The notes beneath the pieces are model-generated. The model ran no database searches. It was not told the DNA's origin and saw nothing but the letters and a program-made list of their open reading frames with translations. Of a stretch of DNA of 57,166 nt, positions 11,710 to 40,869 are shown in pieces. The stretch comes from an uncultured virus (IMG/VR IMGVR_UViG_3300005977_000003). Its lineage: Adnaviria > Zilligvirae > Taleaviricota > Tokiviricetes > Ligamenvirales. The position numbers and the translations under genes are program-made. Location: the IMG/VR virus record IMGVR_UViG_3300005977_000003. The stretch is one strand, 5' to 3'. Numbering within the stretch: position 1 is the stretch's first letter; each line of letters starts with the position of its first letter.

Positions 11710-11711
11710 TC

Positions 11712-18767: not shown

Positions 18768-20210
18768 TCAACCTTGTAAACTTGTCGAGTACTCGGTCTC
18801 TAACCACCAGTTAAGTACGTTGAAGGTTGGCATACCCCAACCTATCTCGTTACTTTTAACCTCAAGGCATTCACTTGGTAAGCCCTCATCTCCAACTACG
18901 CCATCCCTATCTCTATCACACTTGTCGTTAGCCATGTAGCTCCTCGTAAATCCGCTCTCTTTAGCCCAGCTACACATCATCCTCTTTATCTCAATCGTAG
19001 TCAACTCTTTATCCAAAACCTTTCTGTACACCTCGGCCATCAATACGGCGAAACCAGCCATGTGCGGTGTAGCCATACTAGTACCACTCAATACGTCAAA
19101 CCTGGACGGTAGGTGTTGGTATAGAAGGGTTAGCCAACCAGTTATACCATTTAGTATATTCACGCCAGGCATAACAACATCTGGCTTAACACTGTTGAAG
19201 GTTGTTGGGCCTCTACTACTGAAGGTGGCTAGGTTACCGTTTATCTCGTCCCACGCACCTACAGTCAACGACTGTGGCAAGTCACCCGGTGATGCTATTG
19301 TACCACAACCAGGACCACTGTTCCCTGCGGCAAACACCGGTATGCCCCCACTTTGTGTCACCTTCTCCAGGACTGGGTAGAATGGTGAGTCCGTTGGGTC
19401 GTCACTTTGTGGTGTACCACCCCAACTGTTGCTGTAAACCTTCACACCCTGGTTATAGGCAATCTCGAACGCTGAGATCAAGTCCGAATCCGTACCCGTA
19501 CCAACTATGTAATCCAACCCCTTTATTGCCATCCAACTCGACTTACTTGCTATCCCAGTCACACCTATTGGGAATAGGTTACTCCTCAAGCCCATAAGGG
19601 TTGAGACTGTCTTCCTTCCTGCAATCAATAGGGTACACCAAGTCCCATGCCCAGTAGTGTCAAGGAGACCCCACGGGAATACGCTTGAGTAATGCCCTAA
19701 CCTAAACCCACCCTCTGTAGGCATTTGTAGGTGGCGTAAGGCTAAACCCGTGTCAATAATCGCCACCTTCACTCCTCCTCCCTGGTAACCCAGTTTATTG
19801 AGGGTATCCACACCAATCATTTTAGTCGTGTACACACTTGTGGTAAAGGTGTCACCGTAGGGGTTGTGTAATTCACGTAAACTGTAAGTTTGTGTAACCT
19901 TAGTTGGCATTTGTGGTACGGACGAGAGGATTCTATTCCTACCATTGTAGTAGATTGCAACAACGTTACTGTCCTGTGATAATGCGTCAATCTCCTTTGG
20001 TGTTAACACTGTGGAGAACATACTGAAGGTTGGAATCTTTCTAACGTATGATATTCTGGATAGCCTCAACCCGTTCAAAAGTCCGTTATCGACCTTCATG
20101 TATACCTTCGAGATCTCATCCAGCTTTTCAGGATTGGTTTGTACAATGACTGGTATTGTGTTAACCTTTCCACCAACAAGGTCAATAACCTTTTTTGAAA
20201 TATGTACCAT
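18768..20210 (-). CDS. subtilisin-like S8 serine protease with propeptide
   Basis: IIDTG, GHGT, AAGNSG, SSRGP, GTSMATPH. Confidence 0.95.
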   Translation of the reverse strand: MVHISKKVIDLVGGKVNTIPVIVQTNPEKLDEISKVYMKVDNGLLNGLRLSRISYVRKIPTFSMFSTVLTPKEIDALSQDSNVVAIYYNGRNRILSSVPQMPTKVTQTYSLRELHNPYGDTFTTSVYTTKMIGVDTLNKLGYQGGGVKVAIIDTGLALRHLQMPTEGGFRLGHYSSVFPWGLLDTTGHGTWCTLLIAGRKTVSTLMGLRSNLFPIGVTGIASKSSWMAIKGLDYIVGTGTDSDLISAFEIAYNQGVKVYSNSWGGTPQSDDPTDSPFYPVLEKVTQSGGIPVFAAGNSGPGCGTIASPGDLPQSLTVGAWDEINGNLATFSSRGPTTFNSVKPDVVMPGVNILNGITGWLTLLYQHLPSRFDVLSGTSMATPHMAGFAVLMAEVYRKVLDKELTTIEIKRMMCSWAKESGFTRSYMANDKCDRDRDGVVGDEGLPSECLEVKSNEIGWGMPTFNVLNWWLETEYSTSLQG

Positions 20211-20285
20211 AACACCCCTTTGTTGACTCAGAATAATGACCTTTCCCTTTCGTTAGTTTCTTATTCTTAAAATTCAAAAACATTC

Positions 20286-21236
20286 ATGCGTCTCGTAAAA
20301 GGTTCGATACGTGACTGGTTACAGCTATTCCGGGCACAGACGGCTTTTGCCACAATCTACACGTTGTTAATACCATACATGTATGCGGGAGGAAGGGGGC
20401 TAGTCTTACCTTTAGTACTTGTGGGCTTACTTGTGCACTACTCATCATTTGGGCATAATAGCGTTATGGATTACTACCACGATTTGAAGGATGAGAATAA
20501 GGTACACCACCCGTTAACCTCCGGAAGAATAAAGTATGACGAGGCTGTGAAGGCTGTAAACCTGTTGCAGGTTATCTCTGCCATCTCCTTAATCTTGTTA
20601 ACCCTCTACACGGGTAGGTTATTCTCCCTCGTCTTCCTACTACTCTACGTTGTTTTTGGGCATGTTTACAATGACGGGGTGGATCACGTATCCCTTCACT
20701 CGTGGATACCAATCACCATATCATTCGCCTCGTTAACGGTCTATTCCCTCCTTCTCCAAAGTAGTAGCCCATTCCTAATGTTAGTCTTCTTCCTATTGGG
20801 AGTGAATGTCATCTTCTATCAAATTGCGTACGAGGGTAATAAGAAGGACTCTTCGCATGAGGACAACCTTTACTCTAGGTATGGTATTTACGGCAAGGGT
20901 AAGAAATCAAACCTGTTTGAGGTATTCTTTATGTTGGATAGATTGTTGATAGACAGTTTGTTAATCCTTATCCTCATTCCTCACGTAATTTCTAACACGT
21001 TGTTGTTTGTAACTTTCACGCTACTTGAGGCTTATTCAGTTTACCACGTGCACGTTGAGTATAGCGACCGTCTAAAGATGTTGAGGTATTTTGGTATGGC
21101 TGAGGCGTTCGAGTTCTTTAGGATTTTGACAATCCTTCCATCCATCTACTTCCTGTTGTTAGTGATCATTGGGCTGGGTTACTTCGTTTTGATGAATAAG
21201 TACCTGTGGAATACGGACTTTGCCCCAAGAGTCTGA
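20286..21236 (+). CDS. UbiA-family prenyltransferase
   Basis: NSVMDYYHDLKDENKVHHPLTSG Asp-rich motif, YN, multiple hydrophobic helices. Confidence 0.8.
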   Translation: MRLVKGSIRDWLQLFRAQTAFATIYTLLIPYMYAGGRGLVLPLVLVGLLVHYSSFGHNSVMDYYHDLKDENKVHHPLTSGRIKYDEAVKAVNLLQVISAISLILLTLYTGRLFSLVFLLLYVVFGHVYNDGVDHVSLHSWIPITISFASLTVYSLLLQSSSPFLMLVFFLLGVNVIFYQIAYEGNKKDSSHEDNLYSRYGIYGKGKKSNLFEVFFMLDRLLIDSLLILILIPHVISNTLLFVTFTLLEAYSVYHVHVEYSDRLKMLRYFGMAEAFEFFRILTILPSIYFLLLVIIGLGYFVLMNKYLWNTDFAPRV

Positions 21237-25309: not shown

Positions 25310-26248
25310 CTAGAGCGGCTCACTTAATACAAGGATTGTTATCGTTGTGTTACTTGTATACTGGTAGTTTATTTGTACTCCTGATGGTAAGTCTATGTTG
25401 AATTCATACCATGAGTTTGCGTTCAACGGGTTTCCGCTATTGAGGTAGCTTTGTACAGTTGTCGTACCAACAGTTAACGCCAGGCTTAGCGTACCAGATG
25501 CACCTGCGGCGACAACTGTGTGGATACTACTGGGTTGCGTAACTGACAGGTTACTAGTAAAGATGTTTGTGTTCGCCGTTATGCTACCATTCACCACCTG
25601 CCCTAGTAGGGTTGCGTTAGGTTGTTCCACAGTGTTTACAGTACCACCTGTAACGTTTACGGAGATTGGCTGTCCTTCAATTGTGGCTAAAACGGTGGGC
25701 GTATTCGACACGTTGACGGAGATTGGTTGACCCTCAATTGTAGCTAACACAGTGGGGGTGTTTGTCACGTTCACTGAGATAGGTTGACCCTCAATCGTGG
25801 CTAGTACCGTAGGAGTATTCGACACCGTGACCGAGATTGGCTGTCCTTTAATCGTCGCGAGCACCGTTGGCGTATTCGACACAGTGACGGAGATTGGTTG
25901 ACCCTCAATCGTCGCCAATACCCTTGGCGTGTTTGCAACGTTCACGGAGGGGGTATTCGACACGTTCACGGAGATGGGTTGTCCCTCAATCGTGGCGAGT
26001 ACCTTGGGAGTATTTGCCACCGTAACGGAGATTGGTTGTCCCTCAATCGTCGCCAAAACTATTGGTGTGTTCACCACATCAACGTACAGGGTACCATTCT
26101 GAATGTTAGCCTCCACCGTACCCTCAACAATCCATGCATTGTTGAAGGTGTCGTAAGCGATTGCACTACTTTGTATATCAACAGGGACAATGATTGAGGT
26201 ACCAACGATAATGACGTTGCTTGCAGTGGTGATTGATGCCGCCATCAT
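25310..26248 (-). CDS. repeat-containing putative virion fibre/surface protein
   Basis: About seven 19-aa repeats (TPxVLATIEGQPISVxVxN). Confidence 0.65.
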   Translation of the reverse strand: MMAASITTASNVIIVGTSIIVPVDIQSSAIAYDTFNNAWIVEGTVEANIQNGTLYVDVVNTPIVLATIEGQPISVTVANTPKVLATIEGQPISVNVSNTPSVNVANTPRVLATIEGQPISVTVSNTPTVLATIKGQPISVTVSNTPTVLATIEGQPISVNVTNTPTVLATIEGQPISVNVSNTPTVLATIEGQPISVNVTGGTVNTVEQPNATLLGQVVNGSITANTNIFTSNLSVTQPSSIHTVVAAGASGTLSLALTVGTTTVQSYLNSGNPLNANSWYEFNIDLPSGVQINYQYTSNTTITILVLSEPL

Positions 26249-26487: not shown

Positions 26488-26988
26488 ATGCTAACGTTTG
26501 GTTTTACGCAGAAGGGTAGAGGAATGATACAGAGCACTCTAGTATCACCTGGTGATGGAAATCTCATCGTGTTAAATTACATCACGAATGACAAATTTAT
26601 CAACGACAGCCTGTTGTCACTCGTTAACAACAGTAGTAACCTACCTACATTAACGAGGCAAGTTGCATTACGTATACTCGGTTACTCAAAAAGGGTTGTA
26701 AACCAAGCGTTATCTGAGGGCATATGTGAAAAGGTTGGGGAGATTAAGGGTGAAGGAGTAACTGGTGTTGAGGTTACGTGTAATACTTACATATTCAACT
26801 ATGTTTACAACGGAGTTTTACAGTCGCATAAGTACACTCTTCACTATAGTAATGACGAGTCGCCAATACAACACACACTTGAGGTGTACGTTACGAGGGA
26901 GAAGGAGGTTCCGGATGGTGACGAGATGGTTACACAACTTTTTGACAGGTTGCAAAAATACGTTGAGGAGATGGAAAAACTGGTTTAG
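26488..26988 (+). CDS. hypothetical protein
   Basis: 166 aa ORF. Confidence 0.55.
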   Translation: MLTFGFTQKGRGMIQSTLVSPGDGNLIVLNYITNDKFINDSLLSLVNNSSNLPTLTRQVALRILGYSKRVVNQALSEGICEKVGEIKGEGVTGVEVTCNTYIFNYVYNGVLQSHKYTLHYSNDESPIQHTLEVYVTREKEVPDGDEMVTQLFDRLQKYVEEMEKLV

Positions 26989-27899
26989 GCTATTCTGAAC
27001 CCAGCCCTTCCTCCTAGTCTATGCATTGTGGTTGTTTGTCTTGTGGTGGTTGTTGGCTTTGTGGTGGTTGTTGATGGTTTCTGTGTGGTAGGTGGTTGTA
27101 ATCTACCAGTAGCGTAGGTTGGTTTCTGTATAAATTGTGGCGTAGTGTGTTGTATCGTGCTAGGCGTTATCTTCCCTCCTCTGTAACCTGGGTAAGGTAC
27201 AATGACTGGTCCCCTGTAGGGTATGGGGTTTGGGGGTGTGACAACACTTGGACGATGGTAGGTTGTCGTCTTACTCGTTGTTTGCGTAACTGGTCTTGTT
27301 ATAATGTGTATTGCAGTGTGGGAACCGGGATACGGTGCAATACCACCTATTGACCTTACAGTTGTTGTGATGATTGAAGGACCTGGTGGAGTAGACGTTG
27401 GTGTTGGGCGTATTATGCTCACGGTTGGGGTTGGTCTAGGGTACCTGGTTGTTGTGGTCACAGTTGGACGAGGATGTGTAGTCGTCGTTGTTGAGGTTGT
27501 GGTGGTCGGTATCGTCGTAGGAATTGTCGTAGGAATAGTTGTAGGAATAGTTGTGGGTATCGTCGTAGGAATTGTCGTAGGAATAGTTGTAGGAATTGTC
27601 GTAGGAATTGTCGTTGGTATCGTTGTAGGAATAGTTGTTGGAATGGTAGTGGGTATAGTGGTTGTACTTGTCGTTGTACTTGTCGTAGTTGTAGGTAGGT
27701 AGCGTACTATCACCCTTGCCGGTGCGATACCACTAAAATTGCTGGGAATTTGTATCCTACCAGTTAACGCACCGTTTGGATTCACATTCAACGGGTAGCT
27801 TCGTCCAAAAGCCTCGAGTGTGGCGGAAACGATGTTTTGTATTCCTGGGGCAAAGTATGCAACATTGACTATACTACCTGGTTGGACGACCTCTGGCAT
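26985..27899 (-). CDS. Thr/Pro-rich mucin-like protein
   Basis: About 13 tandem TTIP repeats plus T/P/R-rich low-complexity sequence. Confidence 0.65.
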   Translation of the reverse strand: MPEVVQPGSIVNVAYFAPGIQNIVSATLEAFGRSYPLNVNPNGALTGRIQIPSNFSGIAPARVIVRYLPTTTTSTTTSTTTIPTTIPTTIPTTIPTTIPTTIPTTIPTTIPTTIPTTIPTTIPTTIPTTIPTTTTSTTTTTHPRPTVTTTTRYPRPTPTVSIIRPTPTSTPPGPSIITTTVRSIGGIAPYPGSHTAIHIITRPVTQTTSKTTTYHRPSVVTPPNPIPYRGPVIVPYPGYRGGKITPSTIQHTTPQFIQKPTYATGRLQPPTTQKPSTTTTKPTTTTRQTTTMHRLGGRAGFRIA

Positions 27900-28164: not shown

Positions 28165-28500
28165 CCGTTATATAACCTGTTGTAAAACTCTACGGTTACC
28201 GTTATACAATTATTGTAGTATAACTCCATTTTCCATAGTTTTCTCTCCTCCCTCTAGTTATACAACCTGTTGTAGTAACCCCAGGTGATTTTTAATTTTT
28301 TTTTTAATTTTTTTTAAATTAATTTACATATTACAAACTTACATAACATGTATTTATATTCTCACATTAAACTACTTGATAATTAACTCTTTAAGTTTTA
28401 GCTCTTTAAGTTTTAACTTATTAACTTTTTAGTCGTAATACCGCTTACGTAATTTTACGTATTTACTTATGTACTTATTTGCCGTAAACTTTAAATTCTC
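28165..28500. other. AT-rich non-coding tract with direct repeats, candidate replication origin or regulatory region
   Basis: TATAYAACCTGTTGTA twice plus one degenerate copy; long T-runs at 28288-28320; CTCTTTAAGTTTTA twice in tandem. Confidence 0.4.
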
Positions 28501-28519
28501 ACAAGTACAGTATTGTTTG

Positions 28520-29170
28520 TGGCGTGCGTGTGTGTGTGTGTAACACACACACATACGCCCAGTTTTTTTACTTAACATGGGCAAGTTTAACGTACTTGCC
28601 CTAACGCCACTCCTCCTAGGGGTGGGAAGGAGGGAAGGGGAGTTAGCGTTAAAAACGACCCCCCACGCCTAGGAGGAGAGTGGCGACCTCTGGAGGGCGG
28701 ACGGGGGCTCCCTCCCCCGTCGGGCACCTCCGGCGGCTGTGAAGCGGGGGTCCGATGAACCACCCCCCGGTGCACAGCGACCAGGGGAGGGCTCTCGCTG
28801 AGAAGCCGACCGTGCTTGGTGTTCAACGCCAAGTTCACGGCGGCAATGGGAGGGATCGGGCTAGCCCTTTTGCCGGGCGGCCCTTCGCCCTCGAGCCCCC
28901 CGCAAGAGGGTGCACGGGCAACCGTGCACCCTCCCCACTTTTTTCAAGTGGCTGGGGGGCTAAGCCCCTCTCTAATGGCAGGGGCAACCGGCGACGGGAA
29001 ACCCCTGCCAGATGTGAAGGGGTACGTGGTCAACCCTCGCCTGTCCTCTGGAGTTTCTAGGCCCGCCGTGGACAAGCGGCAGGCCACGGGTGCCCCACCC
29101 AAGCTCCCTGGTAAGGGGGCAAACCCCGAACTAGGGAGGCGAGGATGAAGCGGCGGGCCATAACGGGGAG
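28520..29170 (+). ncRNA. candidate large structured ncRNA (GC-rich island)
   Basis: Abrupt GC rise; many perfect stems and GNRA loops on the + strand; CTTTAAAT TATA-like box near 28490. Confidence 0.55.
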
Positions 29171-29173
29171 AAC

Positions 29174-29425
29174 GTGAGCAGGAGTCAACAGATACAAAGA
29201 ATCCTCCGCCAAATAAAGGCGGAGGACCAAGCCCTCCTCCGTGAGATCGCGGAGGAGCAGAAGGTGAGGGCTAAGTCCCTCACCCAACAAGAACTCTATC
29301 CCCTCCTCGCAGAGGAGGGTATAGAGTTGATAGGGGGGCGACTTTACGTCCCCCTATCGTGGGTCGCCGTTGTAAGGCGGCCCAGTATAAGGAATACCCT
29401 AGCCCTCATACCGAGGGCTAGGTGA
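29174..29425 (+). CDS. hypothetical protein
   Basis: 83 aa; GGGGAG upstream; stop followed by the cassette motif. Confidence 0.5.
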   Translation: MSRSQQIQRILRQIKAEDQALLREIAEEQKVRAKSLTQQELYPLLAEEGIELIGGRLYVPLSWVAVVRRPSIRNTLALIPRAR

Positions 29426-29442
29426 TTTTTCGGGGAAGGAAG

Positions 29443-29625
29443 ATGGTGGAACAGGCAAACATAATTCAGTTCTGCCCGGAATGTGGGCAAACATTGTTTA
29501 GAGTGGATAAAGACTACCTAGAATTTAGACCATGCGTTCATTATGCATGGTACGGTAGTTTGGGGTCTATAGGTAACGACGAAATATGGACGAATGGATT
29601 GAGAATTCGTTTATTAAAGAGATAA
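29443..29625 (+). CDS. family A small Zn-binding protein
   Basis: CPECG...PCVHYAW; start reassigned to the ATG after the motif. Confidence 0.65.
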   Translation: MVEQANIIQFCPECGQTLFRVDKDYLEFRPCVHYAWYGSLGSIGNDEIWTNGLRIRLLKR

Positions 29626-29644
29626 CTTTTTTCCGGGGATAGAA

Positions 29645-29770
29645 ATGAGTACCAAGATGTTTCCGTGCCTCTGGGGGCATGACCCCCAGAGGTGCGGGAC
29701 TTGTAGAAGGTGGTGCCTACCCCATGGAAGGTGTAACTTCCATGGGAATTATACTCGTTGGCCTCCATAA
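29645..29770 (+). CDS. 41-aa Cys/His-rich peptide (not in ORF track)
   Basis: MSTKMFPCLWGHDPQRCGTCRRWCLPHGRCNFHGNYTRWPP fills the gap between two motifs exactly. Confidence 0.45.
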   Translation: MSTKMFPCLWGHDPQRCGTCRRWCLPHGRCNFHGNYTRWPP

Positions 29771-29788
29771 ATTTTTCCGGGGATCCGT

Positions 29789-30127
29789 ATGAAAGTGAGA
29801 CTACAGGAATCAGGGGCACTAGGAATCTTACGATGCCCAACGGACAATAAGACGTTGTTGACCTTCAACAATGACGATGTTATTTTAGAGGACTGTGAAC
29901 ATTACCACTGGCATTTAGGTCCTGATGAAGGAGAGATCAACAAGAAAGACGAGAGGGGTGATGAAGAAGACGGTGAGGAGGAAACTGAAGAGGAAGACGA
30001 GGAGGGCGAGGAACTAGACGAACAAGATTGGTTTGAGATATTGAGACAGAACTATATTGCCGCCGTTAGCGTCGAAGGGACAAAGTTTTATCTAATACCG
30101 GTTAAAAAGGCAATGGAGAAAGGCTAA
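29789..30127 (+). CDS. family A protein with acidic insert
   Basis: RCPTD...DCEHYHW, poly-E/D tract. Confidence 0.65.
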   Translation: MKVRLQESGALGILRCPTDNKTLLTFNNDDVILEDCEHYHWHLGPDEGEINKKDERGDEEDGEEETEEEDEEGEELDEQDWFEILRQNYIAAVSVEGTKFYLIPVKKAMEKG

Positions 30128-30144
30128 CTTTTTCGGGGAGGAAG

Positions 30145-30423
30145 ATGGCAACCCAAACGGATATATTAGTTATACTATATCCTAACAATGGAAATGATAT
30201 AGAAGGTGTTTTTATATTAGATCCTTATGATGGAAAATTTGGCTTTTATAAGGCTACAACGTTAGAGGAGGTTAGACAAATTTTAAGGGAGAAACTGCCC
30301 TTTTGTTCGCAGTGGCATTCTCCAATTATACATGGTAGAGCGATTATCATAGATTGGAAGGATCTACCTTCCACTTTACAGGTTATACAAACTCCGAAGG
30401 ACATTGAAAAGTTATTAAGTTAA
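30145..30423 (+). CDS. hypothetical protein
   Basis: 92 aa, follows the motif. Confidence 0.6.
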   Translation: MATQTDILVILYPNNGNDIEGVFILDPYDGKFGFYKATTLEEVRQILREKLPFCSQWHSPIIHGRAIIIDWKDLPSTLQVIQTPKDIEKLLS

Positions 30424-30482
30424 TTTTTCAACGTTTTAATAAGAAGGTTATTTATGTAATCTAACTTTTTCCGGGGATAAAG

Positions 30483-30725
30483 GTGTGGGACGATAAAATG
30501 TTTAGAAGCTTAATCATCACAAAGACCTGTCCGCAGTGCGGACAGGAACTAATGAAAATAAGTGAGGAAGGAGATATACAGTTTCTGCCATGCGATCATT
30601 ACAAATGGTGGTTCCTTATTGCAACAAAGGAAGGTAGGGACGAGTTACAGATATCGGCAGGAACCTTCAAGGTTAGAATCAGGCTCTGGAAGAGAGAACT
30701 TAGCGAGCTTCAAGATAAGACTTAG
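30483..30725 (+). CDS. family A small Zn-binding protein
   Basis: CPQCG...PCDHYKW. Confidence 0.65.
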   Translation: MWDDKMFRSLIITKTCPQCGQELMKISEEGDIQFLPCDHYKWWFLIATKEGRDELQISAGTFKVRIRLWKRELSELQDKT

Positions 30726-30756
30726 GATTGGAAAAGGTAATTTTTCGGGGATAAGA

Positions 30757-31146
30757 ATGAAGATAACTCTAGAAGGTGAAAAATGGACGCCATACATAAG
30801 GTGTCCTGTTGACGGAACAGAGATACTGGTTGCACATGGTGACAATATTATTCTGCAGGACTGCGAACATCTGCATTGGCTTTATCCTGATGACCCTAGT
30901 GAACCTCCAGAGAAAACTAATAATGTCGACGAAGTGGATGAATATGCTAACTTTGATGACTTTTTGAAAAGAAGGTATATCACCACCATTATGACTGGGC
31001 AAAGAAAGCTTTATCTAGTGTGGTTTGTTGACAGACCGGCAGAAGGCGGTTTTGCTGTTCGAGATGGGCGCTTACCGCATGATGGTAGAATGCAGTGGGT
31101 TTTCTTCCTACCACCAGGTTTTCAAGATAACTTACCAACCCAGTAA
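30757..31146 (+). CDS. family A protein
   Basis: RCPVD...DCEHLHW; start reassigned after the motif. Confidence 0.65.
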   Translation: MKITLEGEKWTPYIRCPVDGTEILVAHGDNIILQDCEHLHWLYPDDPSEPPEKTNNVDEVDEYANFDDFLKRRYITTIMTGQRKLYLVWFVDRPAEGGFAVRDGRLPHDGRMQWVFFLPPGFQDNLPTQ

Positions 31147-31162
31147 TTTTTCGGGGATCAAG

Positions 31163-31681
31163 ATGGAGAAATGGGTGAACGAGCTGAGAAATCTTGAATT
31201 TCCAGAGTACAAGAAAGTGTTAGATGAGAAGATAGAAGAGGCTACAGTTTCTTCTAATGGTTACGTTGACTACTACAGGACTTTAATCTATTCCATCGCC
31301 GTCAATACCCTGAATAGAATGCCAAGGAATATCTACCAAGCTCTAAGGGATGAGTATGGAGATAGAGAACCTGTAATACTCGACGACGATGCGGACCCCC
31401 TAGTGGACTTGCTAGTTGAGAAACTACTTATGTATATTGACGTAAAGAGGTCAGGGGTTAAAGGAAAGGCAGAGATAAAGTTCAAGCAGGGAAACTGGTA
31501 TAAGATACAGGTTATTGTTGATATTCCTAGGAAGATAGTGCACGATGAATACGTTAAGTTCTTCGAGGATTACGTATGTGGAAACGAAACTGAATGGAAC
31601 TACAGAGAGGATGGAGTTGTCAACGATCACGAGATCTTCCTTACGAAGAAGGAACTAAGGAGATATAGGAGAATCTGTTAA
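31163..31681 (+). CDS. family B hypothetical protein
   Basis: VDIPRKIVHDEYVKFFE..C..ETEW...FLTKKELRRY; paralog of 34682 and 39778. Confidence 0.65.
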   Translation: MEKWVNELRNLEFPEYKKVLDEKIEEATVSSNGYVDYYRTLIYSIAVNTLNRMPRNIYQALRDEYGDREPVILDDDADPLVDLLVEKLLMYIDVKRSGVKGKAEIKFKQGNWYKIQVIVDIPRKIVHDEYVKFFEDYVCGNETEWNYREDGVVNDHEIFLTKKELRRYRRIC

Positions 31682-31713
31682 TCCACTTTCGTGATTTCTT
31701 TTCGGGGATAAGA

Positions 31714-32007
31714 ATGAAAAGAGAGGAGATAATTGAGCTGGTAAATAAAATTAACAATAATCCTAAGAGGTTGAAGAGAGGTCTTTACCCGTTGGAATAT
31801 AAGGACGACGGATTTAGAATAGTTTTTAGCGTTTACTTGAAACGATTTGCCTTCCTTCCAGAGGGTAAGTTGCTCTTGGAGGAGGCGATACTAGATTATG
31901 ACTTCAAAGGGATGTACTACTGGATCCCTTACGGTGAAATACCAAAAGGGTTCACCACACCAGCAATCAAATTGTCCACACTACACGATGAAGATAAGAA
32001 GGAGTAG
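31714..32007 (+). CDS. family C hypothetical protein
   Basis: LYPLEYKDDGFRIVF...YYWIPY..IPKGFTTPA. Confidence 0.65.
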   Translation: MKREEIIELVNKINNNPKRLKRGLYPLEYKDDGFRIVFSVYLKRFAFLPEGKLLLEEAILDYDFKGMYYWIPYGEIPKGFTTPAIKLSTLHDEDKKE

Positions 32008-32026
32008 CTTTTTCGGGGGTTTGTGT

Positions 32027-32311
32027 ATGAAAAAAGAGAAGATAATCAATTTGGTAAACAAAATTAACGCCAGCCCGGAAAGGATAAGGAGACGTCTCTA
32101 CCCGTTAGAGTACAAGGACGACGGTTTTAGGATTGTCTTCGAACCATATTTAGAACAGTTTATGTTTCTTCCTGAGGGAAAGCTCCTCAGGAAGAAAGCG
32201 ATCAAGGATTGGGATTCTAGAGGAATCTATTACTGGATACCATATCGCAAAATACCAAAAGGCTTCACTACACCTGCACTCCGGTTGGCTAAGTTACGTG
32301 AAGGTAGATAA
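32027..32311 (+). CDS. family C hypothetical protein (tandem paralog)
   Basis: Same motifs as the 31714 ORF; start reassigned after the motif. Confidence 0.65.
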   Translation: MKKEKIINLVNKINASPERIRRRLYPLEYKDDGFRIVFEPYLEQFMFLPEGKLLRKKAIKDWDSRGIYYWIPYRKIPKGFTTPALRLAKLREGR

Positions 32312-32329
32312 CGTTTTTCGGGGATAGAA

Positions 32330-32506
32330 ATGGTGGCAAGAATGGAGATTGTCAGGTGTGAGTACGATGGCGAACCGTTGCTAGCTATATCACTCGACGG
32401 AACGGTTTACCTTTGGAAATGCGAACACCATCAATGGCATCTGGAGAACGACGGTAAGTTTAATCGCAATGGAGTAGGAATATTAAGGATGATCAATAAG
32501 GTGTGA
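32330..32506 (+). CDS. family A protein, 58 aa (not in ORF track)
   Basis: MVARMEIVRCEYDGEPLL...KCEHHQW. Confidence 0.6.
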   Translation: MVARMEIVRCEYDGEPLLAISLDGTVYLWKCEHHQWHLENDGKFNRNGVGILRMINKV

Positions 32507-32522
32507 TTTTTCGGGGATAGAA

Positions 32523-32705
32523 ATGTCGGAAGATCTAAGAATAATATGGGCCTGCCCAGAATGTGGGCAGTACTTAATTAATGAGGCTAAAGAAGGAATT
32601 TTCTTCCAGAATTGCGAACATTTTGAATGGTGGACTAACCTGAGAAAATTAAGTATTGATGAATTAAAAACAAAGGGTATCCAACTACTACTTTCGAAAA
32701 GGTAA
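32523..32705 (+). CDS. family A small Zn-binding protein
   Basis: CPECG...NCEHFEW. Confidence 0.65.
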   Translation: MSEDLRIIWACPECGQYLINEAKEGIFFQNCEHFEWWTNLRKLSIDELKTKGIQLLLSKR

Positions 32706-32723
32706 TTTTTCGGGGGATATAAG

Positions 32724-33263
32724 ATGGAGGATCTGAAGATTGAGGTAGGTGTGAAGGATGATAAGTACCCCTATCTAGATGACAAGAACATTAACTTAAC
32801 CAATCTTAGAGGAGTGAGGGGAAGGCTTATCTACCTTTCCGCAAGGCTTATTAACGCTAATACTGTCACTTTAAAGAGGTTGAACGAGTTTGCCGCTAGG
32901 CTCGATAACGCCAAGATTGCGAAGACAGAGAAGGGGACGTTGGTTGTCAAGTATGAGGATGGATCAACCCTTTATCTGGTGGAAATTCCATCAGGCTATA
33001 GGGGTAGCGTTAACGTTGAGGTGGTTAATGGCGACTGCCAAATCTCTGAGGTGCTAACCTCGCCAAGAGGGTCACTGGGTGAGATTAAGCACGTATGGTG
33101 CAACGGTAATGCCGTAATAAAGTACAAGATCACAGGTAGGACTAGTACTGTTGGTTATGGGAAATTGAGGAATTTATATGGTGAGAATCTAGAGGGTACA
33201 GTGACCGTTGAGGGAGGGAAGGTTAGTGTCGTCTTTGACGAGGAATTGGACAAGTTGATCTAA
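32724..33263 (+). CDS. hypothetical protein
   Basis: 179 aa between motifs. Confidence 0.6.
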   Translation: MEDLKIEVGVKDDKYPYLDDKNINLTNLRGVRGRLIYLSARLINANTVTLKRLNEFAARLDNAKIAKTEKGTLVVKYEDGSTLYLVEIPSGYRGSVNVEVVNGDCQISEVLTSPRGSLGEIKHVWCNGNAVIKYKITGRTSTVGYGKLRNLYGENLEGTVTVEGGKVSVVFDEELDKLI

Positions 33264-33279
33264 TTTTTCGGGGATAAGT

Positions 33280-34164
33280 ATGAATACGTTTGAAATTAAT
33301 GATGGCAATCACAAATATATCCTCACAGGAAAGACGCTAATAGATGACACAATTCTAATAGAATTTAGGATAGAGGGTAATCTGTGGGACTGCCTGAAGA
33401 CTTACCCGTGGTATTTTGGTGTAACAAATTTTGAGGAACTTGTGAATCTCGATAAAGATGAAATTATTGAGATAATCGAGAGGCAATTCAATGAAAAATA
33501 TTTCTACCCAATGCCATACGAACAGGTTAGGAAATATGTTAAAACGCTTATCAAAAACACCATCGAATCTATAGACGTTGCAATTGATCATGTGAAGAAT
33601 AAGATTCCAGATTTCACATCCCTGATCAAAAATGTTACCTCGATTAGTAGTATATTTGATGGTAAGGTAAAATTAGTACTGGATGAGGAACACGACAAGC
33701 TATCTGAGTATTATTCTCTGATAACGACGGACGCTGGGCACATGCCCGTTCCTATATTTATGCAATACCTCGAGGTAGGGGTCAGGAGCGACGAGGACAA
33801 GATAAGTATTTTAAAGAATGTATTGTACTTCATCAAAGGATACGATGAAAAGATACCAGAGGAAAGGAGGGACTGGGAATCTGAGCTAACTGATGACGTG
33901 AGGGGGGCGAAGTCAGAGCTATTTCAAAAAGCAGTAGTGCTGTACAATAAATTGCCCGAGGAAAAGAGGTACCCTGTTGATGATGAATATTATTCCTATG
34001 AGTGTCCGGAGGACTCCTTGCCAGATGGTATAGGTTACTGCAGGAATTTCTACTATGAGGACTTGATGAAGAAGACCGAGGAAGAGTTAGCAAACGAGAT
34101 CATAGAATCACTTACCAAGATAAGGGAAAAGATGTTAAGTTTGAAAGAATACTACGATGGTTAA
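33280..34164 (+). CDS. acidic hypothetical protein
   Basis: 294 aa between motifs. Confidence 0.6.
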   Translation: MNTFEINDGNHKYILTGKTLIDDTILIEFRIEGNLWDCLKTYPWYFGVTNFEELVNLDKDEIIEIIERQFNEKYFYPMPYEQVRKYVKTLIKNTIESIDVAIDHVKNKIPDFTSLIKNVTSISSIFDGKVKLVLDEEHDKLSEYYSLITTDAGHMPVPIFMQYLEVGVRSDEDKISILKNVLYFIKGYDEKIPEERRDWESELTDDVRGAKSELFQKAVVLYNKLPEEKRYPVDDEYYSYECPEDSLPDGIGYCRNFYYEDLMKKTEEELANEIIESLTKIREKMLSLKEYYDG

Positions 34165-34188
34165 ATTATTTTTTAATCGGGGATAAAA

Positions 34189-34503
34189 ATGCAACCCAAC
34201 GAGGAAACGAATAAATTGATCACGGAATTCATCGAACTTTTCTTCAGAAATTACGTTAAAGAATTCAATGTTAAGTTCGACGAATTACAGGTACTACTTA
34301 ATGAAGACGAATTTAAAGAATTGATAGGTGAATACGACAGTAGTAACGGTGCAATTAATGACGGAGTTTACACCGACGAATATGTGTACGATATTGACGA
34401 TGTTAATATGAAGAAACTGATAATTGACTATATGAAGACAGATGACGGAGAATACGTAATACTGTCAATACAAGGATTTGACGACGTGAAACCGACAAAC
34501 TAA
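34189..34503 (+). CDS. acidic DUF1374/AcrID1-like protein (candidate anti-CRISPR)
   Basis: F.N..KE....FD...V.....EF..L...Y.DEY...LIIDY......VI pattern and size resemble AcrID1 as recalled from memory. Confidence 0.5.
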   Translation: MQPNEETNKLITEFIELFFRNYVKEFNVKFDELQVLLNEDEFKELIGEYDSSNGAINDGVYTDEYVYDIDDVNMKKLIIDYMKTDDGEYVILSIQGFDDVKPTN

Positions 34504-34521
34504 TCTTTTTCGGGGATGAAC

Positions 34522-34620
34522 ATGGGAATATTAAGGATAATAAGACTAAGAATAAGGCTACTAAGACTAAGGTTGAGACTACTTAGGATGAGACTGTGGA
34601 AGCTGAGACCGTTGGTGTAA
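34522..34620 (+). CDS. 32-aa Arg/Leu-rich peptide (not in ORF track)
   Basis: MGILRIIRLRIRLLRLRLRLLRMRLWKLRPLV, directly after a motif. Confidence 0.45.
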   Translation: MGILRIIRLRIRLLRLRLRLLRMRLWKLRPLV

Positions 34621-34681
34621 TGCGGAGAAAAGCGAACATTTTTTCGGGGATGGAGGAGTAACGTTTCTTCGGGGATCAGTA

Positions 34682-35215
34682 ATGGAAGAGGTATTGTGGG
34701 TTAACGAAATAAGGGACGTCGGATTTCCAGAGTTCGACAAAGTAATAAAGGAGATGATAGAGGCAGACACCACAGGATACAGAGTCTGTTTTGCAGACTA
34801 CCAATGGATGTTAATTCATTCCATTGTATTGAATACTATAAACAGCTTACCAAAACCTATCTATCAGGCCATGATATCCAAATACAACGATGACGAATAT
34901 ATAATACGTGCGTTAAGTAGACGACTACTTAGGAGATTACAGATAAAGAGAAACGGAGCTAAAGGAAAGGTGACGATGAGGGTTAAAGGGGATAAACCGT
35001 ATAAACTGAGAATAGTTGTTGACATCCCTAGGAAGGTACTACACGACAAATATGTCGAGTTTTTCGAGAAATACGTTTGCGATAATGAAACGGAGTGGTG
35101 CTACTGTAGGGGGGAGGGTGAAGTTCTTGACCACGAGGTCTTCCTTACGAAGAAGGAGTTAAGGAAGTATAAGCGAATGTGTGAATCCACTTGTGTAGAT
35201 TTCATACCCTATTAG
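34682..35215 (+). CDS. family B hypothetical protein
   Basis: VDIPRKVLHDKYVEFFE..C..ETEWCYC. Confidence 0.65.
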   Translation: MEEVLWVNEIRDVGFPEFDKVIKEMIEADTTGYRVCFADYQWMLIHSIVLNTINSLPKPIYQAMISKYNDDEYIIRALSRRLLRRLQIKRNGAKGKVTMRVKGDKPYKLRIVVDIPRKVLHDKYVEFFEKYVCDNETEWCYCRGEGEVLDHEVFLTKKELRKYKRMCESTCVDFIPY

Positions 35216-35261
35216 CGTCCATCTAGTAATTCTAATAGGTCAAGATTTTTCGGGGATTGAG

Positions 35262-35558
35262 ATGGGAGTTGAAAGGGCAATACACACCTTACAGGATGGA
35301 CAGGAGGAGAGCTTGTACTGTAAGATGTGCTACGAAGAGTTGTCCAGGGAGTTCTATAACGATAGTGGTATACAAGTGCTCCTTAGGGTGAACGACTGTG
35401 AACATTACCAGTGGATTTTTGTGGGGGATCCGTTTTTGGATCCCCCATGGGATGTGGTGACAAGGGAGATCATTAACAATGCCGTTGCTAAGGTGGACGC
35501 AAGTGGTGGCAAGTATTTCCTCCTACCAAGAAGTCTGGCTGAGAGGTATTCGAATTGA
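35262..35558 (+). CDS. family A protein
   Basis: CKMC...DCEHYQW...LDPPWD...KYFLLPRS. Confidence 0.65.
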   Translation: MGVERAIHTLQDGQEESLYCKMCYEELSREFYNDSGIQVLLRVNDCEHYQWIFVGDPFLDPPWDVVTREIINNAVAKVDASGGKYFLLPRSLAERYSN

Positions 35559-35575
35559 TTTTTCGGGGAAAGAAG

Positions 35576-35869
35576 ATGGCTGTGAAGTGGATAGTGGAGA
35601 ACGAAGAGAATGGACAGCTAGGAAAGTTCTACTGTACAATATGTAAGCAAGATCTGTCTAGAGTATTCTATACCTGGGGAGGTGCCTACCAGTTTCTCGG
35701 TGTTTACGATTGCAAACACTATGAATGGGTCTTCGTAGGGGACTACGACTTGGATCCCCCATGGGATGAGGAGACAAAGAAGATTGTAGAGAATTCCCTA
35801 GGATCCGTTGTGGAACAGCACGGTAAGTACTTCCTTCTACCAAGGAGTTTTGTAGACAGGTACAAGTAA
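35576..35869 (+). CDS. family A protein
   Basis: CTIC...DCKHYEW...LDPPWD...KYFLLPRS; start reassigned after the motif. Confidence 0.65.
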   Translation: MAVKWIVENEENGQLGKFYCTICKQDLSRVFYTWGGAYQFLGVYDCKHYEWVFVGDYDLDPPWDEETKKIVENSLGSVVEQHGKYFLLPRSFVDRYK

Positions 35870-35889
35870 CAAATTTTTCGGGGGTCAGC

Positions 35890-36408
35890 ATGTTATACCC
35901 TACTTTCAATGAGAAAGGTATACCCAACAAAAAGTTGATGTTAAACGTGGACAGAGATGGGGTATTACTGGTGGATGGGGAGAAACTGATAACATTAACT
36001 GTGAGCTATAAGGGGGTGGTGAAGGCGGTTATGAAAAACCTGGTGTTCAAACCCGAATTGATAGCAGGAGGGAGAATAGAAATAGAGGATGTGAACTACG
36101 ATATGGATGGTCTTATACGTTTCCTATCCACGGCATCATATCAAGTGTTTGGTTCTGAAAAGGCGTTAATTGCAATGTTATACAAGAAGGTCTTCAAGGA
36201 TAAAGTGTACACATTTTACGCTATAGTACCAAAACCCACAGGAGAACTCCTCCCTAATTACGTCGTGCAGGAAATGGTGAAGGGGGAGAAGAGGTACTAT
36301 ATCATGTACACTGGACTTGGAATGTTTGGAATAGTCAGTAACGTTGAAGGTGGAAAAGGAATAATAAGGAAGATTAACAAAACCTTTAGTGTGTGGGTGT
36401 ACAAATGA
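35890..36408 (+). CDS. hypothetical protein
   Basis: 172 aa, follows the motif. Confidence 0.6.
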   Translation: MLYPTFNEKGIPNKKLMLNVDRDGVLLVDGEKLITLTVSYKGVVKAVMKNLVFKPELIAGGRIEIEDVNYDMDGLIRFLSTASYQVFGSEKALIAMLYKKVFKDKVYTFYAIVPKPTGELLPNYVVQEMVKGEKRYYIMYTGLGMFGIVSNVEGGKGIIRKINKTFSVWVYK

Positions 36409-36647
36409 TCGAGATAAGGAATATTCTATTACGTGAGAAACCCACGATACTCAAAGTTATCTCTGAGGATGGAAGGGTAATACTTGTGATGAATAAGGAG
36501 AGGCATAGGTTAATCTCGACACTGGAAGAGGTGGAGGAAACCTTGGAGGGTTTGAGGAAGATTGGTGTTCTACAGGACTTCATGGTTGTTGAAAGGTTTG
36601 ATGCGGAGACAAGTAGTTGGAGGACTTACAGGCTTAAGTGGTTGTGA
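36393..36647 (+). CDS. hypothetical protein
   Basis: 84 aa, overlaps the upstream gene. Confidence 0.55.
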   Translation: MGVQMIEIRNILLREKPTILKVISEDGRVILVMNKERHRLISTLEEVEETLEGLRKIGVLQDFMVVERFDAETSSWRTYRLKWL

Positions 36648-36665
36648 TTTTTTCGGGGTGATAGA

Positions 36666-36872
36666 TTGGTAAAAATAATAAGGATAACGGTTAAAGAGGG
36701 CGAAACAAAGGTTGACTACATTGGTTATGAGGGAAAGCAGTGTGACGCCGCTGATGATAGGTTTAGGAGTAGCCTAAGGAAGATAACGGGTTTTGAAGTG
36801 GTGGAGAGGAGGAATAAGCCAGAGTATTACGAGGGTGAGGGCAGTGAGAATATGCTTAGGAGTGAGGAGTGA
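36666..36872 (+). CDS. DUF2997-like small protein
   Basis: G.TKVD..G.EG..C......L......KPEYY pattern; next to an AAA ATPase. Confidence 0.6.
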   Translation: MVKIIRITVKEGETKVDYIGYEGKQCDAADDRFRSSLRKITGFEVVERRNKPEYYEGEGSENMLRSEE

Positions 36873-37004
36873 CGAGTGCGATGCCTTAGTTTACGATGGT
36901 TATGCGGTTGTGAATACGAACGTTGACGCAAAGAAGTTGGCAAAGATGTTGGGGTCGGATGAAAAGGCAATAAGCCCGTGCGGATAACTTTTTCGGGGAT
37001 CGAG

Positions 37005-38519
37005 ATGCACTGGTATGATAAGATAACCGGTTATGTTAAGAATAAAATTAGTAACGTCGGAGTGGTTGTCACGGATGATATTTACAGGCTTTACGAGTTA
37101 ATTAACATCACGAGGGATAGGAAGGAGGACGTGTGTTTTGTGGATTTACAGCAGGGTGATCTCGATAACCACAGTTTTACCATTTTCAGTGGTAGTACTG
37201 CGAGTAGGCAAACGCTTAATAGCGACACACATGCGGACTTCCTCTACAACCTATCGAGTAGGTGTACCGTCGTTTTGAAGTGGGTGGTAAATAAGTCGTT
37301 GGCTGACAGGCTTGAACCCATTATCTTCTCTCTACACTCCAACATCGACATGTATGACGACAGGATGAGGAATAGACATCCGGTACTCGTATTTAGCGTT
37401 AGTTACTTCTGGAATATCATTGACCTTGCCAGTGTTGAGGTGAACCCCACGGATGAGGAGTACGAACAACTACTACAGCAGGCGAAAAAGGTTTACGAGT
37501 ATACCCACAAGAGCGAGGTTGTTTTACCAAGTAGTGACGTGGTAAAGGGGCTTAACCTATGGACAGCACAGGGTGTCCTAAGGAACTCCATAGTTGTTGA
37601 GAAGGGTAAGGTGACTTTTGACAGTGACAAGATTAACGACTTTAAGAAGGAGATATTCCATAAGGCTGGTATTACCCTAATAAAAAGCGACATTAACTTC
37701 GAGTTTGTTGGAGGGCAGAGGTTACTGAAGGAATACGTTAGGAATAAGTGGAAGAGTATACTTAACCACCCAGAGGAGGCAATGGAGTATGGTGTCAGGT
37801 TGCCTAGGGGTATGATACTTCATGGTCCACCAGGTACAGGAAAGACTTGGTTCGTTAAGGCGTTGGCAGGCGAGTTAAACTTGCTAATGCTACAGATTAA
37901 TGCCGCAGACATTTTTAGTAAGTGGGTGGGAGAGTCGGAACAGAAGCTGAGGATGTTGACGAAGTACGCAGACATCACGAGGGCTGTCCTGTTCATAGAT
38001 GAGCTAGACGCATTAGCCTCCAAGAGGACGTCGGAAGAACATGAGGTTAGTAGGAGGGTTAAAAACATGTTTTTAGAGTGGCTTGGTGACGCTAACAGAA
38101 AGGCAATCGTGATAGGGGCGACCAACATGTTACAGGAGTTGGACGAGGCGTTCACTAGACCAGGAAGGTTTGATGATATACTACCAGTATCCTACCCCAA
38201 TAGGGAGGACTTAAAGGAGATATTCGGTGTACACATTTATAAGTACAACCCCATCAAACACGTTGACAAACTTGACATGGATAGGATTGCGGAGAGGGCG
38301 TATGGGTACTATTTGAAGCCTAACGAGGTTGAAAAGGTGGTACACAATGCGAAATTGAAGGCTTTCCTAAGTAAGGGAAAGCTTACGACTGAGATAATAT
38401 TGGAGGAGATAGACGAGGTAGGTAAGACTGTCAACGTTTCAGAGAGGTCGAGGTATATGAACGAGTATGAGAAGAAGGAGAAGGAGTTGTTAAGTAGCGT
38501 TAATACGAGGTGGTTCTAA
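37005..38519 (+). CDS. AAA+ ATPase (Ycf46/CDC48-like)
   Basis: GPPGTGKT, SKWVGESE, FIDELD, GATN, RPGRFD; start reassigned after the motif. Confidence 0.9.
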   Translation: MHWYDKITGYVKNKISNVGVVVTDDIYRLYELINITRDRKEDVCFVDLQQGDLDNHSFTIFSGSTASRQTLNSDTHADFLYNLSSRCTVVLKWVVNKSLADRLEPIIFSLHSNIDMYDDRMRNRHPVLVFSVSYFWNIIDLASVEVNPTDEEYEQLLQQAKKVYEYTHKSEVVLPSSDVVKGLNLWTAQGVLRNSIVVEKGKVTFDSDKINDFKKEIFHKAGITLIKSDINFEFVGGQRLLKEYVRNKWKSILNHPEEAMEYGVRLPRGMILHGPPGTGKTWFVKALAGELNLLMLQINAADIFSKWVGESEQKLRMLTKYADITRAVLFIDELDALASKRTSEEHEVSRRVKNMFLEWLGDANRKAIVIGATNMLQELDEAFTRPGRFDDILPVSYPNREDLKEIFGVHIYKYNPIKHVDKLDMDRIAERAYGYYLKPNEVEKVVHNAKLKAFLSKGKLTTEIILEEIDEVGKTVNVSERSRYMNEYEKKEKELLSSVNTRWF

Positions 38520-38539
38520 ACTTTTTTCGGGGTGAAGGC

Positions 38540-38911
38540 ATGTCCCACATAGTGAAGATAAACTTAAGTTTAAACATTAACGATAAGCAGGCTGTACTAC
38601 AGGCGTTGACTAAAATGGGTGTGAAGATATCGAGCGAACATAAGGTTAGCGACTATTACGGTAAGGTTACAACTGTCAGTGACGGATTAATCTCGTTTAA
38701 TGTGAAGGGTAGATGGTTTACGCTGGATAAGAATGGCAATCTCATTGGCGATACCTATGGTCTAGGCGAATTACCGATAAACACTATCAAGTTTGCCGTG
38801 TTACTTGCGGCAACGATGAAGAATGGAGGAAGGGTTAAGAAGGTTGAGATGATTGGTGATGGATGGACGGCTGACGTGGAGGACACGGTGGAGGAGAAGT
38901 TTGCGGCTTAA
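38540..38911 (+). CDS. DUF1257/Ycf35-like protein
   Basis: MSH....I.D...L.AL..MG...D.YG pattern; follows the ATPase. Confidence 0.55.
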   Translation: MSHIVKINLSLNINDKQAVLQALTKMGVKISSEHKVSDYYGKVTTVSDGLISFNVKGRWFTLDKNGNLIGDTYGLGELPINTIKFAVLLAATMKNGGRVKKVEMIGDGWTADVEDTVEEKFAA

Positions 38912-38941
38912 GCAAGTAGACTAATTTTTCGGGGAAAGAAG

Positions 38942-39757: not shown

Positions 39758-39777
39758 ACCCTTTTTCGGGGATCGAA

Positions 39778-40275
39778 ATGGGTGAAGACGTAAAGAAGAT
39801 TGTGATCACGAATGTGGATTGGAATGCTTACTTGGAGATAGAACGTGGTTCCTTACAGGGCGACTTTATGACTCAGTCGTGTGATAGTGACTTTCTTGAC
39901 ATGGTGGCTTACACCTTAGCCAACCAAGCCCTTCCACATGGAAATACCATCAAGCTATCCGATGAGATAAAGGAGGCTTTCAGGAAGACAGAGTACGGCA
40001 ATGACTTCAAGTTTAGTAAACTGTTGGTTATTGAGAAAGAGGGTAAAACGAATAAGTACCTCTTGGAGATACAAATACCTTGGGATGTTATGCACGACAA
40101 GTTTATAGCGTTTATGGAGAGGATACAGGAGAGTTGGTGGCAATTATGTTACTGCCGTTTCAATCCAGGATCCTTCCCAGAGGGTGCCGACTACAACGTG
40201 TTACTGAATGAGGAGGAGAGGGAGAGATATAGATACGTTTGCGAGGAGGGAAGATTGGAGAAGAGGTGGTTGTAA
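39778..40275 (+). CDS. family B hypothetical protein (divergent)
   Basis: IQIPWDVMHDKFIAFME...LCYCR...VLLNEEERERYRYVC. Confidence 0.6.
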   Translation: MGEDVKKIVITNVDWNAYLEIERGSLQGDFMTQSCDSDFLDMVAYTLANQALPHGNTIKLSDEIKEAFRKTEYGNDFKFSKLLVIEKEGKTNKYLLEIQIPWDVMHDKFIAFMERIQESWWQLCYCRFNPGSFPEGADYNVLLNEEERERYRYVCEEGRLEKRWL

Positions 40276-40292
40276 CTTTTTCGGGGATGGAA

Positions 40293-40751: not shown

Positions 40752-40869
40752 CTTTTTTCGGGGATGGAGACACGTGGTAGAATGTAGAACAGACATCCTC
40801 GTTCATTACTAGTGAAAATATATCAAATTGCCTAACTAAATTTTTCAGTGATGTGAGACGAAGGCAAGA

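Follow-up and report, generated by a model that had tools for sequence, protein, structure and literature searches.

What is the sharply GC-rich island at positions 28520-29170 of the genome record of an uncultured hot-spring virus (IMG/VR IMGVR_UViG_3300005977_000003), and what could it do for the genes that follow it? The whole stretch of DNA analysed (57,166 nt, hereafter the window) looks, from its gene content, like most of a crenarchaeal virus genome. It encodes PolB, a clamp loader, a Cas4-like nuclease, a Holliday-junction resolvase, an integrase, queC/D/E, folE and DUF1374, and for its AAA ATPase the closest counterpart is in Acidianus tailed spindle virus (ATSV; 41%). Five metagenome CRISPR arrays carry many spacers against this virus, several of them at the ends of the island and in the first ORF downstream of it. 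As the repeat of these arrays was found in a single genome of a 185,579-species collection, that of Metallosphaera yellowstonensis MK1, this species is the likely host.

Elsewhere in the window, a GATase-QueC fusion, QueD, QueE and FolE beside PolB (2905-4281 and 11299-13844) form a 7-deazaguanine DNA-modification set. PolB, the clamp loader and the Cas4-like nuclease lie at 13835-17593, PolB having a best match of 25% among phage records and none in ten spindle-type genomes compared. Two repeat proteins encoded at 26985-27899 and 25310-26248 (minus strand), a PTTI-repeat, threonine-rich protein and an NTP-x-VLATIEGQPISV-repeat protein, are probably virion surface or tail parts, and genes for a subtilase-family protease and a UbiA-family prenyltransferase, unusual for a virus, are found at 18768-21236.

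Covariation and architecture of the island

An earlier note, drawn up from the sequence alone, had claimed a sharp rise in GC at this place and a candidate large structured viral RNA. The rise was evident, as the best 600-nt segment (start 28591-28661) reached 66.2% GC compared to 42.0 ± 3.1% outside the island, where the maximum was 51.3%. Folding of 28500-29200 was more stable than that of shuffled sequences on both strands (z of -8.2 for the plus strand and -11.3 for the minus strand), with 0/20 shuffles equally stable.

The 41 homologues of the 83-aa first ORF downstream of the island were aligned and used to retrieve 36 metagenome loci, 31 of them viral and 5 CRISPR arrays. The DNA upstream of the ORF matched the island in 28/28 viral loci reaching that far, these loci having been selected by the ORF. 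The window and 18 of the 31 viral loci were aligned (19 rows), with exclusion of 12 loci covering the 3' part only and of one near-duplicate. Pairwise identity in the core was 72-100% (mean 82%), and because the rows are related and visibly mosaic, the counts given here are of sequences, not of events. In a curated model of 167 pairs, drawn from the same 19 rows, 98.9% of the cells were paired and 39 pairs had changes in both bases; shuffles gave 20.7 such pairs and slid controls no more than 7. RNAalifold predicted 239 pairs on the alignment, 51 with compensatory change. Relatives and covariation, both of which the earlier note had proposed to look for, were thus found. The four ORFs that overlap the RNA were intact in 7/19, 4/19, 3/15 and 3/19 rows and showed no third-position excess, so that the coding conservation which the same note had set against an RNA was seen in none of these frames. 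The comparison supports a conserved plus-strand RNA fold of about 640 nt, and the claim of a large structured viral RNA gains from the covariation, from the lack of a conserved overlapping ORF and of any matching Rfam family, and from a weak hint of expression described below. The predicted elements and the genes that follow them are:

28482-28497, plus strand: promoter, a BRE-like purine-rich stretch with a TATA box (position of the TATA-like box conserved in 16/16 rows covering it)
28520-29160, plus strand: structured RNA, about 640 nt (covariation; weak hint from RNA depth)
28521-28569, plus strand: 5' hairpin H0 and T6-T8 run (15/15 rows covering it; -15 to -29 kcal/mol)
28579-28601, plus strand: hairpin H1 with an invariant 7-nt loop (8 pairs, 3 compensatory, 100% paired)
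28605-28685, plus strand: long hairpin H2 (one long stem in 18/18 rows folded singly; inner sequence differs)
28688-29053, plus strand: core domain, 365 nt, closed by long-range helix P1 (28688-28707 with 29034-29053)
28709-28855, plus strand: four-way junction and an arm bent by two K-turns
28737-28802, plus strand: K-turn 1 (28737-45 / 28797-802) and K-turn 3 (28753-61 / 28784-89)
28724-28773, plus strand: pseudoknot PK1, loop-loop pairing of 28724-28 with 28769-73 (97.9% paired)
29026-29087, plus strand: pseudoknot PK2, 29026-30 with loop 29083-87, connecting core and 3' domain (100% paired)
29060-29159, plus strand: 3' domain, 100 nt, with closing helix, K-turn 2 (29069-73 / 29143-50) and a hairpin
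29163-29169, plus strand: invariant ACGGGGA at the ribosome-binding position of the first ORF
29174-29425, plus strand: first ORF, 83 aa (41 homologues, 65-99% identity)
29426-44704, plus strand: cassette operon, 15 kb, with 30 junction motifs T4-6(N0-4)CGGGG(AT)

The boundaries given by the earlier note (28520 and 29170) matched the TATA box and the 3' closing helix, and the start site would fall at about 28519-28521 by the usual promoter spacing; covarying hairpins extend beyond the second boundary, through the first ORF to 29422. Upstream, between divergent genes, the stretch 28280-28500 is AT-rich (15-26% GC), contains short direct repeats and is a candidate origin or promoter; its part 28367-28420 is replaced in most relatives.

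At the 5' end, H0 is GT/AC-rich and variable in sequence, with only 29% of its columns invariant, and together with its T-run is attenuator- or terminator-like in appearance. P1 consists of 19 pairs (99.2% paired) with 3 compensatory and 5 one-side changes. The longest invariant runs of the four-way junction are 28709-22, 28803-15 and 28833-56, and its arm helix has 5 compensatory pairs. As helices P3 and P4 of the central junction are invariant, their pairing is only predicted and their sequence would be under extra constraint. Three sites showed, in 19/19 rows, a bulge of 3 nt and then tandem G-A/A-G pairs, flanked by two helices, the NNU-GA/GA signature being kept at each and the G-A pairs never varying. 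The flanking pairs covary at K-turn 1, whose closing pair 28737-28802 is C-G in 10 rows and U-A in 9. In PK1, one pair is G-C in 13 rows and C-G in 6, and PK2 has two compensatory pairs (C-G 13/U-A 6; G-C 18/C-G 1). In the 3' domain, 73% of the columns are invariant and the helices are 93-100% paired; its hairpin carries a UAA/GAA internal loop (29112-14 / 29128-30), which we take to be a UAA/GAN motif.

Every stem named in the earlier note was present at or near the place given for it, and its near-perfect long pairing corresponds to H2, but not all of these stems belong to the conserved fold. The two helices that it described as crossing are perfectly complementary in the window; one of them (29035-42 with 29137-44) is broken in 9/19 rows, and has 92.8% of its cells paired compared to about 99% for competing partners of the same bases. 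The RNA would be pseudoknotted, as the note had proposed, through PK1 and PK2, which covary, and not through the helix named. Similarly, the gacggggg/cccccgtc stem exists in the window but is 92.1% paired with zero compensatory change and is not favoured, whereas gct-GTGA-agc and gct-GAGA-agc, read by the note as loops, are the two strands of K-turn 1 and not tetraloops.

A structure of the DNA itself, such as a single-strand origin or a cruciform array, could also produce strong folding, and the minus strand does fold well. We consider this extremely improbable, as the three K-turn signatures are invariant in 19/19 rows, the TATA box is conserved, and the plus strand has 247 G-U cells against 9 A-C cells, an excess that is partly by construction since the helices were chosen with G-U allowed. 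The K-turns and the G-U cells likewise disfavour the single-stranded DNA origin that the note had left as an option.

Family searches, possible L7Ae binding and hints of transcription

When the RNA was compared with Rfam 15 (including GOLLD, ROOL, OLE, ribozymes, riboswitches, SRP and RNase P), the best score was 21.4 bits against a threshold of 58.6 (E = 0.075), and no family was matched. ARAGORN found 0 tRNA or tmRNA genes in the window. By their characteristic motifs, RNase P RNA regions CR-I and CR-V were found in 0/19 rows on both strands with 1 mismatch allowed, the group II intron domain V hairpin in 0/19 rows, and the group I intron core only as an R-like element in 1/19 rows per strand with S in 0/19. 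These outcomes agree with the earlier remark that the island lacks hallmarks of tRNA, RNase P, SRP and self-splicing introns. A box C/D guide RNA was considered and rejected, the arm having the order C, C, D, D, with its intervening stretches paired through 5 compensatory pairs and a full C box in only 4/19 rows. As judged by these searches, the RNA belongs to no known family.

Outside the retrieved loci, no DNA match to the island was found among 50,697 phage records. In IMG/VR, a 24-mer of the island gave 0 matches, a 16-mer gave 117 chance matches of which none extended, and three protein scans returned no relative. An invariant 22-mer had 0 matches in the 185,579-species genome collection, and a model of the island matched 0 of 151 Sulfolobales genomes in a search run without a positive control. 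A literature search found no large structured RNA of an archaeal virus and no description of the window RNA or of the ATSV island discussed below as an RNA, though ATSV's own paper may discuss stem-loops. A survey of candidate viral RNAs appears to omit Sulfolobales, and its supplements could list fragments (PMC10690425).

Archaeal L7Ae binds K-turns (PMC6298567; PMC5539422), and the three K-turns of the RNA may bind the L7Ae of the host. They share the standard 3-nt bulge and tandem G-A/A-G pairs with the archaeal RNAs described as bound by this protein, namely box C/D and H/ACA guides, RNase P RNA and the l7ae leader (PMC6298567). In contrast to those RNAs, the K-turns of the window lie stacked in arms that are paired throughout and leave no single-stranded guide, and the RNase P regions are absent.

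Part of the window was contained in 21 sequencing runs, 7 of them recorded as RNA; four runs were compared, all as contigs. Relative to the median of the other bins, depth of the bin 28728-29216 was 10.2, 4.8 and 8.8 times in three RNA runs from three studies, compared to 1.0 times in a DNA-like run. In two of the runs the depth was about 86-108 on the island vs. about 9-10 on the first ORF. Overall, the drop from RNA to first ORF was about 4-10 fold, and in another run one contig runs into adapter sequence at 29154. Depth on contigs gives no ranking of genes, the runs had been selected because they contain the island, and DNA may be present in them. The RNA-seq check that the earlier note had proposed is thus represented by three metatranscriptomes, which hint weakly at an abundant RNA that ends upstream of the first ORF. 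These data and the conserved promoter suggest that the island is transcribed from the TATA box as a leader RNA.

The same data bear on a reading that we hold to be rather doubtful, in which the island would be an independent RNP or RNA cage that acts in trans, in the manner of GOLLD, ROOL or OLE. It would serve as scaffold, decoy or L7Ae sponge and, although co-transcribed with the operon, would not act on its junctions. The depth difference and the contig end at 29154 are what such an RNA could leave, and its size and ornate fold with loop-loop pairings recall ROOL and GOLLD. GOLLD, ROOL and OLE are described as heavily paired RNAs of about 600-800 nt with pseudoknots and kissing loops; GOLLD and ROOL are phage-borne, OLE has a K-turn, and the function of all three is largely obscure (PMC12286853). 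The kissing loops of ROOL and GOLLD build nanocages, and the functions of these two RNAs are poorly understood (PMC12286853). In contrast to these RNAs, that of the window comes from an archaeal virus, has no Rfam match to them and no tRNA gene in the window, and is accompanied by a repeated junction motif. Such a particle would also leave unexplained why an island and a junction array occur together in two distant viruses and are both absent from nine others.

The cassette operon and its junction motif

The claim that the RNA heads the cassette region was supported by the distribution of the junction motif, with 30 copies in the operon downstream, one extra copy at 46907, none upstream of the RNA and none on the minus strand. 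In the typical layout (stop-TTTTT-CGGGGAT-N4-start), a stop codon lies at most 9 nt upstream of the motif in 28/30 cases and a start codon 6 nt downstream in 20/30. This 6-nt spacing is the register of the canonical GGTG site used by the remaining genome. Among T-run-preceded xGGyG sites before start codons of the operon, 26/27 are CGGGG and 0 are canonical GGTG, and pairing with the host 16S tail is the weaker for the motif (-5.4 vs. -13.6 kcal/mol at 37 °C). The strict motif is rare in the host order (2/201 genomes, one match each, both isolated), and of the 71 loci returned by a scan of IMG/VR, each had at most 2 copies and none resembled the island. In the other long plus-strand gene run of the window, T5 follows 0/17 gene ends checked. 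TATA-like words precede 13/139 distinct junction contexts (background 3.5%), and thus most cassettes would be without a promoter of their own.

Cassette content and order vary among relatives, and two contigs skip from motif to motif, 34639 to 35246 and 40753 to 41141 (606 and 387 bases), with 15-16 shared bases. These differences and skips could be taken to mean that the RNA guides cassette shuffling at the motif in the manner of a bridge RNA, which is very improbable, as ordinary recombination at a repeated 15-nt signal would suffice and no IS110-type recombinase was found among 75 ORFs scanned. T4-like phages have PeSL cassettes, small accessory genes that are shuffled by crossover at an intergenic signal repeated between them. 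PeSLs contain promoters and stem-loops, whereas the junction of the window is of 12 nt, has no hairpin and belongs to an array headed by a large RNA.

Several cassettes are paralogues, and degenerate tandem repeats occupy an ORF-free gap (42450-42851) after the motif at 42327. A trio of genes for a 68-aa protein, an AAA ATPase and a 123-aa protein (36666-38911) is common to the window and ATSV. A DUF1257 lead was obtained for the trio (score 0.87), to which a profile search added nothing. The trio is presumably a Ycf46/DUF1257/DUF2997-type module, and given this resemblance to a known module it was not taken as the partner of the RNA.

The first ORF is open and in frame in 19/19 rows, with third positions the most variable. 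Its product had no Pfam, PHROG, Atlas or fold match, and its AlphaFold model has pLDDT 68.5 and pTM 0.30. Besides coding for a protein, the ORF is covered by five covarying hairpins; it begins with GTG in the window and with ATG in relatives, and the spacer before it has a deletion in the window and one relative.

A comparable arrangement was found in ATSV (NC_029316.1), where an island at 385-950 (566 nt, 65% GC in a genome of 36% GC, z of -9.7) directly precedes the T-run/CGGGG signal of the first ORF, one of 12 copies in total. Of the T-run-preceded xGGyG sites of ATSV, 8/9 are CGGGG. Annotation of this island in the record is limited to stem_loops and a hypothetical ORF (gp01) that overlaps it on the minus strand. 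Both islands are similar in size, GC excess and folding strength, and both head an operon, the two operons having five homologous genes in common. In contrast, the ATSV island shares with that of the window no sequence similarity by alignment (43/200 shuffles score as high), no match by nhmmer and two covariance models (best 14.3 bits), no K-turn by strict criteria, which recovered 2 of the three in the window, and, in the ATSV genome, no homologue of the 83-aa ORF. Its best score against Rfam was 24.5 (threshold 43), and a 22-mer from one of its loops had 0 matches in IMG/VR. It is probably an unrecognised large RNA. Both viruses have the operon by common descent, and so the joint presence of island and motif counts as one event, not two. 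Neither an island above 55% GC nor more than 2 motif matches was found in STSV1, STSV2, ATV, ATV2, SMV1-4 and YNP1. A repeat region and a possible mini-CRISPR were also noted in the operon that ATSV shares with the window.

These comparisons also touch on the idea of a replication primer like ColE1 RNA II (about 555 nt), placed at an origin beside the AT-rich repeats. The repeats lie immediately upstream at the point where gene orientation diverges, the virus encodes PolB and RFC, and the ATSV and STSV1 records annotate a stem_loop and repeats at the genome start. A primer is nonetheless quite improbable, because the RNA would be transcribed away from the AT-rich stretch and into a coding gene, the STSV1, STSV2, ATV and SMV genomes are without a comparable GC island, and the junction motif would not be accounted for.

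Possible roles of the RNA in expression of the operon

The RNA probably controls expression of the operon that it heads. Our preferred reading, held tentatively, is that it may be a cis-acting, L7Ae-bound processive antiterminator of the conAn/put kind. A leader would be transcribed from the TATA promoter at the head of a 15-kb operon of small genes, and L7Ae bound at its three K-turns would help it to fold at high temperature. The folded nascent RNA would then modify the elongating RNA polymerase of the host or shield the transcript from aCPSF1, resulting in read-through of the 5' hairpin-U tract and of the approximately 30 U-tracts after stop codons. The 83-aa protein may assist the RNA in the way that ConAn1 assists conAn2, and the folded part may outlast the message as a stable remnant, of which the depth data give a weak hint. 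The action would resemble that of the bacterial antiterminators put, EAR and conAn2, although the RNA is not one of them.

Antitermination is favoured because the RNA is the first element of a one-directional operon in which 28/30 motifs follow a stop codon, compared to T5 after 0/17 gene ends elsewhere, because ATSV has the same layout and 9/9 other genomes have neither feature, and because most cassettes have no TATA-like word while the 5' hairpin and T-run are present in 15/15 rows. To these may be added that operon depth did not fall from the first to the second half in the 3 RNA runs, weak as contig depth is for this comparison. U-tracts are described as archaeal terminator signals read by aCPSF1 (10.1101/2021.05.26.445813; PMC13675443), and with the 30 putative U-tract terminators, all downstream of it, the RNA opens a long operon that has a series of such internal signals. 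The conAn2 RNAs measure about 260-600 nt and open long operons of mobile elements that are rich in terminators; they work in cis together with a small protein, and their identity to one another is no more than 30-40% (PMC8191782). The conAn, put and EAR systems thus have in common with the window a large RNA starting a long mobile-element operon with many internal termination signals, an adjacent small protein gene and an RNA sequence poorly conserved between elements (PMC8191782). The described systems are all bacterial and act on hairpin-U terminators, whereas the window has an archaeal host, bare U-tracts, K-turns and two pseudoknots; in addition, the conAn protein gene lies upstream of its RNA (PMC8191782) and the 83-aa ORF downstream. 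No homology to a known antiterminator RNA was seen in the comparison with Rfam.

Several observations stand against antitermination. It leaves the conservation of CGGGG unexplained, a single U5 tract may terminate weakly, and the drop in depth from the RNA to the first ORF fits a stand-alone RNA equally well. The ATSV island has no detectable RNA homology and no 83-aa ORF beside it, and no precedent for antitermination in archaeal viruses, nor for RNA-based antitermination in archaea, was found in the literature search.

In another reading, the RNA would read the CGGGG motif by base pairing, either recruiting ribosomes to a virus-specific site or cleaving each junction to yield near-leaderless single-gene messages. 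This is unlikely on balance, even if the site is non-canonical, dominates in both viruses (26/27 and 8/9) and is rare in the host order, and lies in the register of a Shine-Dalgarno site yet is bound poorly by the host 16S tail. Pairing of the core strand 28715-22, which is invariant, with the ACGGGGA of the first ORF is possible in 19/19 rows, through 6 consecutive pairs in 10 rows and 8 in 9 without true covariation, but a typical junction could form only 5 pairs with this strand. For each virus, the strongest duplex that its island can form with its own motif is a 7-bp CCCCGA(A/U) in the 3' domain. Taken singly, either 7-mer does no better than chance (13% and 7% of shuffles), the matches were noticed only afterwards, and that of the window lies within a covarying stem. 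No joint from the RNA to a cassette, as expected from splicing of a leader, was seen among 15 of 17 joints, contigs being able to show presence and not absence, and a weak Shine-Dalgarno site may suffice given translational coupling. In its fuller form, likewise unlikely, an L7Ae-bound viral RNP would pair with the virus-specific site and load ribosomes or cut the polycistron as a private expression system.

Whichever reading applies, the RNA comes with an obvious candidate target, the junction motif, and a second example sits in a published virus record, that of ATSV, so that reporters in Sulfolobales could test the function directly. As a thermostable 640-nt molecule with K-turns and pseudoknots, the RNA would also be a good target for cryo-EM. 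If antitermination is true, this would be the first archaeal RNA to reprogram an RNA polymerase II-like enzyme or the aCPSF1 termination factor. If instead translation is what it controls, it would be the first archaeal RNA to define a private ribosome-binding signal, and direct reading of CGGGG by the RNA would be categorically new. Under a private expression system, any gene captured behind the 12-nt signal would be expressed only in infected cells.
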